DNA from: a virus
Lineage: Duplodnaviria; Caudoviricetes
Length of the DNA stretch: 64,000 nt
Reading direction: 5' to 3' (one strand)
IMG/VR virus record: IMGVR_UViG_3300049988_000245
Location: 128,001 to 192,000 of that record
The position numbers and the translations under genes are program-made. Below are positions 1-32,563 of this stretch, piece after piece (positions within the stretch are counted from its first letter, which is position 1; every line of letters begins with the position of its first letter). Below the pieces are notes generated by a model. The model saw nothing but the letters and a program-made list of their open reading frames with translations. It did not search any database and had not been told where the DNA came from.

Positions 1-344
1 GCCTTTACGCGATTCGCCATCGCAGCCTTGTTGCCAAGGTTGGGATCGGTCTTCATCTTATCAGCGAGCTTGGCCGCCTGACCCATCATCTGCGAGGAGA
101 TGGGCTTGGAGGGCGTCTGCGTACCGGTCTGGCCGGGCTTGGCCGTGCTCGTGATGCCGGGGGCTCCGTTGGTGGAGTTCGGCTGTGTTTGACCGCCAGC
201 AGGCGTCGGAGGAACCGGAGCGACCGTATCCTCGTCAACCTCTTTGCGATCGAAGAGACGGCCAACGATGCTGGCCGAACCCTTCTTCTTCGGGGCGGAA
301 TCGCCCGCACACGCCTTGTCTGCGTGGCGGGACGTTATTTTCCC
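1..344 (-). CDS. Open frame running off the left edge; probable -1 frameshift extension of the 335-1252 protein (partial)
   Basis: No stop from 344 to 1 in this frame; codon usage looks coding (AAG/GCC/ACC/GGT); no ATG/GTG/TTG for about 80 codons; entered by slippage at GGGAAAA (344-338). Confidence 0.6.
304..344 (-). promoter_or_regulatory. Putative -1 programmed ribosomal frameshift signal (G_GGA_AAA, 6-nt spacer, GC-rich hairpin)
   Basis: Minus strand: CCG GGA AAA TAA CGT CCCGC-CACGC-AGACAAG-GCGTG-T-GCGGG. Confidence 0.65.
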
Positions 345-1252
345 GGCGCAGACTCCCGAACGATCTCGACAACATCGGAGAAGTCGATGCCAAAGTGGCG
401 AGCGATGGTCTTCGCGGCCGGGACCGGCTTGGCACCCTCGCGGATCGCACGACGGAACATCTTCAGGATACGAGCGTCGGACTCGGAGACTTCGTCCTTC
501 TTGGCGAACGGATTCTCGTCCTTGTCGCAATCCTTGTCCTCATCCTCACAATCGTCCTTCTTCTCGGACTTGTCGGCATCCTTGGGAGCGAACGGGTTCA
601 CACCCTTCTTGCCCTTGACGAACTCGCCTTCCTTGATGGCCTTGCCACGCGGAGCGGCGGATTCCTTCTTAGCGCGGCCAGCGGCGGTTGACGCGTCGGC
701 GCCGAAGGCGTCGTCCAGACCAGCGTCCGCATCAACCACACCCGCCTCAGGCGCCACAGGGGCGCCCATCTCGGGAGCGATGGCCGGAGACGCCGCGTCC
801 ATGCCGCCCATGTCGGGAGCCGGAGCCGCAGCAGCCGGGTCACCCATGGCGGACATATCGTTGCCGGGGGTCTCGCCGTTCATGATGCCTTCGAACTTGC
901 CGACCTCGGAAGAGATCGCGTCCTTGGCCTGGGAGACCGCCATAACGGTGGCGTTGATCTTCTCGGAAACGATCGACTGGAACTGCTCGGCCATCTGCGG
1001 ACCGAAGGCCGCCTTCAGGGGCTCCATGATCGGCATGATCTCATCGCCGTTCACCTTGGCAAGGTCTTCGGCAATCTTCTGGAGCTTGTCCACGATGGAC
1101 TTCGCGGCGAGGACAACCTCAGCCTTCTCAAGCTCGGACTCGATGAGGAAGGCTAGACCAGTCTTCGACTGAGCTTCCTTCAGGTTCTTAAGCTGCGCCT
1201 GAAGAGCATTCTTTCGACGCATCATCTCAGCCAGTTTGGTCTTCTTGCTCAT
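335..1252 (-). CDS. Acidic helical/low-complexity protein, putative prohead scaffold or core-like protein
   Basis: 305 aa; coiled-coil N-half, Ala/Pro/Asp linker, several I/L-x-E motifs of the type cut by T4 gp21-family proteases; function inferred. Confidence 0.5.
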   Translation of the reverse strand: MSKKTKLAEMMRRKNALQAQLKNLKEAQSKTGLAFLIESELEKAEVVLAAKSIVDKLQKIAEDLAKVNGDEIMPIMEPLKAAFGPQMAEQFQSIVSEKINATVMAVSQAKDAISSEVGKFEGIMNGETPGNDMSAMGDPAAAAPAPDMGGMDAASPAIAPEMGAPVAPEAGVVDADAGLDDAFGADASTAAGRAKKESAAPRGKAIKEGEFVKGKKGVNPFAPKDADKSEKKDDCEDEDKDCDKDENPFAKKDEVSESDARILKMFRRAIREGAKPVPAAKTIARHFGIDFSDVVEIVRESAPGK

Positions 1253-1266
1253 AATAACTCCTTGAA

Positions 1267-1533
1267 TTATTTGCGTTTACGGATGCGCTTTGGCGCGATT
1301 TCTTTAAGCAGCAGGTGGACTGCTTCACTGATCAGGACTGCTTTGGCGTAGTCGGGGTTGCGCATCGAATCGGCTTCCCCCAAAGTGGCCAAGAACACTT
1401 TTCGCTTAGACTCGTAGAGATTCCGAACATCTACCAGATGTTCAAACGTACCGAACTCCACTCGAACGCCGAATCGACTTTCAAGCAGAGTATTAATCGG
1501 TTCGATTTTCTTGAGGATGGCCCTCTCGTTCAT
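1267..1533 (-). CDS. Hypothetical protein
   Basis: 88-aa ORF with upstream TAAATA (1563-1568), collinear with neighbours. Confidence 0.6.
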   Translation of the reverse strand: MNERAILKKIEPINTLLESRFGVRVEFGTFEHLVDVRNLYESKRKVFLATLGEADSMRNPDYAKAVLISEAVHLLLKEIAPKRIRKRK

Positions 1534-31838: not shown

Positions 31839-32563
31839 TTCGATTTGATCATCGCGGTGGCCTCGTTCAAGGCGAGTTGCAGGCGGGCGAACCCCCTGTG
31901 GTTCTTCGTCAGATTGGCGTTCAGATAGAGCCGCTTGTGGACCTCGAACATCATCGCCGACAGGCCCGAATAACCCCGCATCCCCGTGGGGACCATCGTG
32001 CCCTCGTACGGGGTGTTCACATTGACCGAGTAGCCGTGGCGCTCGAACACCGCTCGGGCCTCATCGACCATCCAGCCCTGTGTATGATCGGGGTCAGTAC
32101 CCAGGCAGATGTCCGGTCGGTCCGAGTGAAGTCCACTAGAACCGGCCTGCTCGTCCGAATAGCTGTGCATATCGATCAGAAGCACTTCCGAGATCGGAAG
32201 GGTCATCGAGATGGATTGTGACAGCCACTTATGATGAGCCCGATAGTGTAGCAGGGCGATGTTTTTCGCGGCTGAATTCGGATCGCGCAGAGTTCGACCG
32301 TTGTGGGTCTTCTCATAGAATACACCCTGGCCACGTTCTGTCAGGGGATCGTCCTCGAATCGCTCGACATCACAGAACACCCGCGAATACGGGAAAATGA
32401 TCTGCTCGTCTGCCTCGGTCAGGAGTTCGTCGGTGAACCAGTCGGTCACCACGCGCATCTCTGCGCGGGCTCGATCCATTTCGTCCCGAGAGAACATCCT
32501 ACGCATATCGGGCGGGCATTCTGTCGAGCAATGCGGGATGTGGGTGATCACGTAGGTTGGCAT
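31835..32563 (-). CDS. N-formylglutamate amidohydrolase family protein
   Basis: HIPH, TDWFTDEL, SRVFCDVER, IDMHSY, DICLGTD, NTPYEG, MFEV. Confidence 0.85.
   Translation of the reverse strand: MPTYVITHIPHCSTECPPDMRRMFSRDEMDRARAEMRVVTDWFTDELLTEADEQIIFPYSRVFCDVERFEDDPLTERGQGVFYEKTHNGRTLRDPNSAAKNIALLHYRAHHKWLSQSISMTLPISEVLLIDMHSYSDEQAGSSGLHSDRPDICLGTDPDHTQGWMVDEARAVFERHGYSVNVNTPYEGTMVPTGMRGYSGLSAMMFEVHKRLYLNANLTKNHRGFARLQLALNEATAMIKSN

Follow-up and report, generated by a model that had tools for sequence, protein, structure and literature searches.

Does the gene that closes at the edge of this stretch of phage DNA make one protein or two? The window (the whole stretch analysed, 64,000 nt) belongs to a linear virus contig from IMG/VR that is ~57% complete according to CheckV and has 56% G+C; the isolates nearest to it are two jumbo phages, Sinorhizobium phage Phosso and Agrobacterium phage Atu_ph07, with the Rak2/121Q/PBECO4 group farther off. 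Near the start of the window, on the (-) strand, lies a gene (P0001) with a strong AAGGAG ribosome-binding site ahead of its ATG and the 3' end GCG CCG GGA AAA TAA, beyond which a second reading frame continues. Comparative analysis makes it very likely that a cassette for -1 programmed ribosomal frameshifting closes this virion structural gene of an uncultured jumbo phage related to Atu_ph07, so that a short and a long form of the protein are made (Table 1).

A first-pass annotation, drawn from the letters of the window, had proposed one gene with two products on the basis of four features, and all four were confirmed. The heptamer G_GGA_AAA lies directly before the TAA of the gene. Six nucleotides past it is the strong hairpin that the annotation had placed at 304-331, with a calculated folding energy of -20.5 kcal/mol, which puts it in the best 1.4% of the 45-nt segments of the locus. 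The -1 frame, described as open for more than 110 codons to the window edge, has 148 open codons after the slipped Gly-Lys, and the stretch of about 80 codons said to have no start codon extends to an ATG, the first in-frame ATG/GTG/TTG, 83 codons past the 0-frame stop. This ATG has no Shine-Dalgarno sequence, the preceding sequence being CTCCTCGCAG. The frame runs ~105-106 nt past the window edge, to G000:C1:127895 (L001:1395), and its TAA stop (L001:1392-1394) is 12 nt ahead of the ATG of the next gene, which has its own TAAGGA site. Ribosome-binding sites of neighbouring genes are likewise AAGGAG or TAAGGA. The two-product reading itself is now supported by conserved signals, by constraint on the -1 frame and by fused relatives. 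The long form is predicted to have 453 aa and the junction ...ESAPGK-ITSRHADK..., and the predicted Glu-C peptide across that junction is SAPGKITSRHAD.

Table 1. Positions of the features discussed (window positions unless prefixed by a contig or locus handle).
Feature	Position	Strand	Remarks
Window	G000:C1:128001-192000		Part of a 265.9-kb linear IMG/VR virus contig
0-frame gene, short form (P0001, 305 aa)	1252..335	(-)	From ORF list and translation
SD-like element GGGAG	353..357	(-)	8 nt 5' of heptamer
Putative slippery heptamer G_GGA_AAA	344..338	(-)	X_XXY_YYZ register; last two sense codons of short form
0-frame stop TAA	337..335	(-)	Abuts heptamer; ends short form
Putative stimulatory hairpin	334..302	(-)	Core 331..304, plus two outer C-G pairs
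Predicted -1 frame extension (P0005, 148 aa)	1..338 in window	(-)	First new codon AUA (Ile) at 338..336
Conserved ~60-aa module, start	1..95	(-)	P0005 residues 82-139 (alignment A3); continues past window edge
Next gene downstream	L001:954-1379	(-)	141 aa, starts MLLLEIFE...; beyond window start

The string GGGAAAA is present in 19 copies on the two strands of the 265.9-kb genome, where base composition predicts ~27. Only the copy that closes the P0001 gene has an extended ORF before it, a stop directly after it, a hairpin, and a long -1 ORF lacking a start. Outside the heptamer, the P0001 gene uses GGA for none of its 21 Gly codons and AAA for one of its 34 Lys codons.

A protein search identified 88 homologues of P0001. 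Among these, proteins of 266-430 aa (40-95% identical over their full length) almost all have the C-terminus x-G-K, and a pattern count found this terminus right after a DVVEIVRE-type motif in 31 homologous protein clusters. The residue x is P, L, T, A, Q, R or K, for all of which codons ending in G are possible. Via contigs encoding homologous proteins we assembled a comparative set of 13 loci, comprising the window and 12 fetched relatives and together representing ~11 lineages, in which the upstream protein is 41-95% identical. In other collections, a single-protein relative search of IMG/VR returned no loci, a search of IMG/VR with alignment A1 returned one true full-length locus, and the same alignment returned no loci from JGI metagenome contigs; a degenerate DNA pattern for DVVEIVRE matched 120 metagenome stretches, none of them homologous by tblastn. 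The 490-aa clade represented by L017 was considered as a further frameshift locus and rejected, as it ends GAA GGC AAG TAA followed by a terminator-like hairpin and has no -1 ORF.

Heptamer, hairpin and open -1 frame, whose conservation in homologues the first-pass annotation had suggested checking, are kept at 13/13 loci. The in-frame G_GGA_AAA is identical base for base in all of them, and the codon before its GGA is CCG, CTG, ACG or CGG, always ending in G. The 0-frame stop adjoins the heptamer at 12 loci (TAA at ten, TAG at one and TGA at one) and comes one codon later at the remaining one, L015. Across the genes of the 13 loci GGA makes up ~2% of Gly codons and AAA ~2% of Lys codons, and a naive joint probability of the fixed GGA AAA, calculated from codon usage, is ~3e-40. 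A codon pair that is rare elsewhere yet fixed here has thus been selected as nucleotides rather than as amino acids. These observations bear on an alternative that we regard as improbable, namely that a separate gene occupies the downstream frame and is expressed either from a start codon of its own or through termination-reinitiation after the TAA, the heptamer and hairpin being incidental; such a gene would leave unexplained why the rare GGA AAA and the preceding wobble G are fixed at 13/13 loci.

The open frames point the same way. After the slipped Gly-Lys, the -1 frame is open for 106-408 codons at every one of the 13 loci, and the +1 frame closes within 4-33 codons at the nine loci checked. 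Gene callers do place separate downstream ORFs of 65-408 aa here, as an independent gene would have it, and they start them from assorted GTG and ATG codons; in the window, ATG ATG stands ahead of the conserved module. The first possible start in the -1 frame is, however, anywhere from 2 to 85 codons from the site, differs in position and codon by lineage, and lacks a Shine-Dalgarno sequence. An independent ATG or ribosome-binding site, which the first-pass annotation had named as evidence against its own proposal, was looked for at the 13 loci, and none is conserved. At five loci the -1 frame is closed within 7-10 codons 5' of the heptamer, so there is no conserved overlapping start either. 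Only at L142, where the junction reads AAA AUG A, does an AUG overlap the stop (AUGA) and permit stop-start coupling.

Downstream of the site, GC3 moves into the -1 frame. We calculated pairwise dN/dS in all three frames for the stretch from the hairpin to the first ATG, using seven pairs of loci. For five pairs, dN/dS is 0.07, 0.16, 0.26, 0.32 and 0.41 in the -1 frame, and 0.96-4.2 for the identical nucleotides read in the other two frames; for the two more distant pairs, the linker gives saturated -1-frame values of 0.9 and 1.3, with no clear constraint. By this measure purifying selection on the ATG-less stretch is confined to the -1 frame, which an independent gene beginning at the ATG would not account for. 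Because the start-less stretch is constrained and the starts are not conserved, conservation at the protein level begins at the slip site and not at an initiation codon.

The hairpin has the core CCCGCCACGC/GCGUG-U-GCGGG, a stem (331..322 / 314..304) interrupted by a one-base bulge and capped by a 7-nt loop, and formation of the two outer C-G pairs would shorten the 6-nt spacer between heptamer and core to 3 nt. Folding energies of the 45 nt that start three bases past the heptamer are -17 to -27 kcal/mol across the 13 loci and rank in the top 0.1-4% of segments from the same locus; at 12 of the loci the hairpin starts 3-6 nt past the heptamer. The exception is again L015, which has a weak outer stem at 6 nt and a strong stem ~22 nt downstream of the heptamer. 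Stem sequences vary among lineages, and covariation was assessed with RNAalifold on a nearly gap-free alignment of ten loci. The consensus is a 9-bp helix with 92% of cells paired, compared with 77% in column shuffles (0/500 as good) and 30-53% when the partner strand is slid by 1-3 columns; compensatory changes on both sides are found in seven of the nine pairs. Folded singly, several GC-rich loci score modestly against shuffles, with z of -0.4 to -1.6 at four of seven. There is no T-run 3' of the hairpin on the coding strand, and it is therefore not an intrinsic terminator for the P0001 gene. A terminator-like signal on the opposite strand, L001:1815-1831 (+), was discarded, as it is the reverse complement of the hairpin together with the complement of the A-run and there is no gene of that strand to use it.

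Upstream of the heptamer, the SD-like GGGAG is found at an equal distance at 8/13 loci, where Arg-Glu is written CGG GAG, and is not conserved at the rest. By analogy with dnaX, this element may be a candidate extra stimulator.

The same signals weigh on a second alternative, that RNA polymerase slips on the A-run and adds one A, so that the long form comes from edited transcripts. An A-run is indeed present (six As at L015), and an inserted A would yield an identical protein. At 12/13 loci, however, the run has only four As. Transcriptional slippage normally requires ~7-9 identical bases. Moreover, editing of this kind gives no role to the conserved G_GG, the adjacent stop or a covarying hairpin at the spacing of programmed frameshift sites, and we consider it very unlikely.

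That the split is an error of sequencing, or that a fused gene was recently broken by a frameshift mutation, leaving the extension as a dead remnant, is the least credible of the alternatives and can be given almost no weight. Fused relatives in a single ORF do exist, and a one-base change could split such an ORF; yet the split is at an identical heptamer in 13 independent assemblies with protein identity down to 41%, the extension has stayed open and under purifying selection, and the covarying hairpin has been kept. The site is also covered by contigs of three further studies. These have no indel at the A-run and differ from the window at 0 positions over 655 nt, by 12 substitutions over 1300 nt and at one position over 423 nt. 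A low-depth, divergent contig in run X2 (record 2) covers window positions 322-445 with 15 differences in 124 nt, including a one-base insertion at 344 and a compensating one-base deletion at 350, both within the two codons immediately 5' of the heptamer; it is probably a co-occurring relative with another residue before Gly-Lys.

When 1.84 billion representative proteins were scanned in full with HMMER, 38 proved to contain the extension module, some of them with both parts in one frame. In four of the 38 (P0106, 653 aa; P0108, 563 aa; P0111, 390 aa; P0121, 388 aa) the whole upstream protein is N-terminal to the module. In P0039 (326 aa) the sequence ...DVLDVLREAAS continues directly into the module without the GK-stop, and Atu_ph07 gp044 (YP_009611709, 771 aa) aligns collinearly with both the upstream protein and the extension module. 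These six relatives have the modules in equal order. Lineages that lack the signals thus encode nothing but the fused protein, as would be predicted if frameshifting joins the two parts in the split lineages. A tree built from the N-terminal module mixes frameshift-type with fused forms and collapses to a polytomy at depth. A tblastn search of a phage collection showed that 63 jumbo-phage records match the N-terminal 40% of P0001, and that the split (frameshift) form occurs in no isolate of that collection. A Rak2-type frameshift in PBECO4 was considered and rejected: gp477 ends GTT AAA AAA TAA, and gp476 follows with an ordinary Shine-Dalgarno sequence and ATG. From its position, length and 111-aa profile, gp476 seems equivalent to the PHROG 15050 gene and not to the extension.

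Under the frameshifting model, most ribosomes would decode GGA AAA and terminate at the adjacent TAA, releasing the 305-aa short form. The hairpin, 3-6 nt past the heptamer, would stall a fraction, with slow decoding at the stop codon perhaps contributing; on these ribosomes the Gly and Lys tRNAs could re-pair one base back (GGG AAA) in a tandem -1 slip. AUA (Ile) would then be read next, in a run of 148 further -1-frame codons that gives the 453-aa long form and thereby adds a disordered linker and a conserved three-helix module. Ribosomal slippage itself, the short:long ratio and the role of the long form are inferred. In E. coli, A_AAA is less slippery than A_AAG, and efficiency here may be low. 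Our guess is that the extra module is borne by a minority of the copies of a virion protein that is processed by a protease and probably belongs to the head.

As to what this protein is, residues 1-207 of P0001 match positions 1-196 of the PHROG 14154 profile, annotated as virion structural protein (E = 1.4e-25), and on this match P0001 is a member of that virion structural protein family. No part of the short form or the extension had a match that reached the Pfam cut-off, PHROGs gave no match for the extension, and ESM Atlas gave no usable one. In the AlphaFold2 model of P0001, residues 3-124 form long helices, 125-250 an acidic disordered stretch and 250-301 a confidently predicted small three-helix domain. 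A Foldseek search of the short-form model against the PDB returned generic coiled coils only, with E of 0.3 or worse.

The label of head scaffold or core protein given in the first-pass annotation is a guess. Scaffold families, such as that of T4 gp22, show no sequence or profile similarity to the protein in Pfam or in Foldseek against the PDB, and its family is known only as a virion structural protein. A role as a head scaffold is plausible. No major capsid or prohead protease gene is found near the frameshift gene in this ~57% complete contig; gp23-like fragments lie 17-48 kb away, and there is no Peptidase_S77 match in the contig, although a control search for the protease likewise found nothing anywhere. 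The cassette is syntenic, flanked at nearly all loci by an 88-aa gene upstream and a 141-aa gene downstream. The latter has a weak match to PHROG 15050, another virion structural protein (E = 0.004), and is followed by a kinase-like gene; it appears to correspond to PBECO4 gp476. There is no tape measure gene among these downstream neighbours, and the placement is thus not that of a tail chaperone of the G/GT type.

Evidence on the fate of such a protein in the particle comes from Atu_ph07, where gp44 (86 kDa) was detected in virions by ESI-MS/MS with 21 unique peptides, and peaked in abundance in gel band 10, where proteins of ~20 kDa run (PMC6102473, Table S5). The recovery of an 86-kDa protein mainly in a ~20-kDa band suggests that Atu_ph07 gp44 is proteolytically processed. 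In P0001, the motif G-R-A-K-K-E-S (residues 192-198; window 659-679 (-)) is invariant or nearly so across the family in alignment A1, and the more distant homologues of ~300 aa, P0082-P0092, terminate right at the equivalent ...GRGRR or ...GRAKR. GRAKKES could be a module boundary or a processing site, which would fit the low-mass band of gp44.

The extension is modelled by AlphaFold2 as a disordered linker of ~80 residues followed by a three-helix module (pLDDT ~80), and in alignment A3 the linker is variable and rich in Pro, Thr and Gly. When the extension model was compared by VIA-align, winged-helix and three-helix structures scored Z 5-6.8, below significance, the helical arrangement being a common one. 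The possibility that the module is a duplicate of the three-helix domain at the C-terminus of the short form was rejected, with an hhalign probability of 0.15%. In several lineages (L012:3328-4416, L016:3307-4296, L142:3334-4557, L014 and L015), the extension continues for 100-250 residues past the module. These residues share the motif (E/D)EDYQNGS and end in differing C-terminal domains, so the appended part is evolutionarily variable.

A more speculative proposal, which we think unlikely though worth stating, is that the site is a device for appending, by which a set minority of the copies of an abundant, protease-processed internal virion protein would bear the linker, the module and lineage-specific domains. 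The weakly winged-helix-like fold of the three-helix module and the length of the extensions, 123-408 aa, were taken into account in this reading. If correct, it would mean that variable cargo is brought into the capsid, possibly entering the host with the DNA, and that lineages toggle between having all copies fused and few copies fused by gain or loss of the slippery site.

By analogy, the site comes nearest to the capsid-gene frameshifts of phages A2 and T7, which also lie at the 3' end, and for its heptamer to lambda G/GT. The major head protein of Lactobacillus phage A2 is reportedly made as gp5A and gp5B by -1 frameshifting. As proposed for the present locus, ribosomes on the A2 gene slip back one base at an X_XXA_AAA-type heptamer that closes a virion structural gene and is followed by a stem-loop, and in A2 the normal and the C-terminally extended forms both enter the particle. 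However, the A2 gene encodes the major capsid protein of a small siphovirus, whereas the protein here is coiled-coil and largely disordered and comes from a jumbo myovirus lineage; here, too, the heptamer is G_GGA_AAA with an abutting stop, and the long product is a predicted one. Gene 10A/10B of T7 (G_GUU_UUC) also has a -1 shift near the 3' end of a structural gene that yields a minor extended form, in T7 in a set proportion, but differs in heptamer, stimulator and protein family, and its extension of ~50 aa has no conserved folded module.

Lambda gpG/gpGT has a nearly identical heptamer (G_GGA_AAG, hence G_GGA_AAR for the two) and, as proposed here, makes short and long products from overlapping frames. 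The lambda site, however, is in tail chaperone genes just ahead of the tape measure gene and works without a strong hairpin, while the present gene is without a tape measure neighbour and belongs to PHROG 14154. E. coli dnaX (A_AAA_AAG) resembles the cassette in its heptamer and downstream hairpin, and in its upstream SD-like element, which here occurs at 8/13 loci and is not clade-wide; in contrast, the dnaX tau/gamma shift leads to a shorter protein, and the one proposed here would lead to a longer. Finally, Atu_ph07 gp44 and Phosso gene 458 (593 aa) have a homologous N-terminal module, with 33-40% identity, but are single ORFs with no heptamer, adjacent stop or frameshift, and carry extra C-terminal domains. 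Literature searches and phage records returned no description of this site. The mechanism is not new; the site is an addition to a known mechanism type, in a protein family unrelated to those of the precedents.

The cassette is a well-supported case of probable programmed frameshifting outside tail-chaperone genes, in a giant-phage clade known almost only from metagenomes. For annotation, gene callers in this clade report a gene of 270-340 aa with either an arbitrary downstream ORF or a 'non-coding' gap, and correct annotation restores a virion protein of 400-750 aa. The interleaving of fused and frameshifted lineages is a natural experiment on why phages set a ratio of short to long structural protein. 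At ~60 nt from heptamer to hairpin, and with 13 natural variants, the cassette is compact enough to suit tests of G_GGA_AAA plus stop in proteobacteria.

DNA nearly identical to window positions 1-1300 was found in runs from leaf and silage metagenomes of at least five studies; no RNA run was among the public runs listed with this stretch. This occurrence points to a phyllosphere organism as the host, which fits the rhizobial or agrobacterial relatives.

A second GGGAAAA in the window, at 32391-32400 (+), precedes a TGA (GGGAAAATGA); 84 codons are open before it, and the -1 frame is open for 54. We rejected it as a frameshift site, since its -1 frame opens with an ATG overlapping the stop (ATGA), giving it the look of an ordinary overlapping gene pair.
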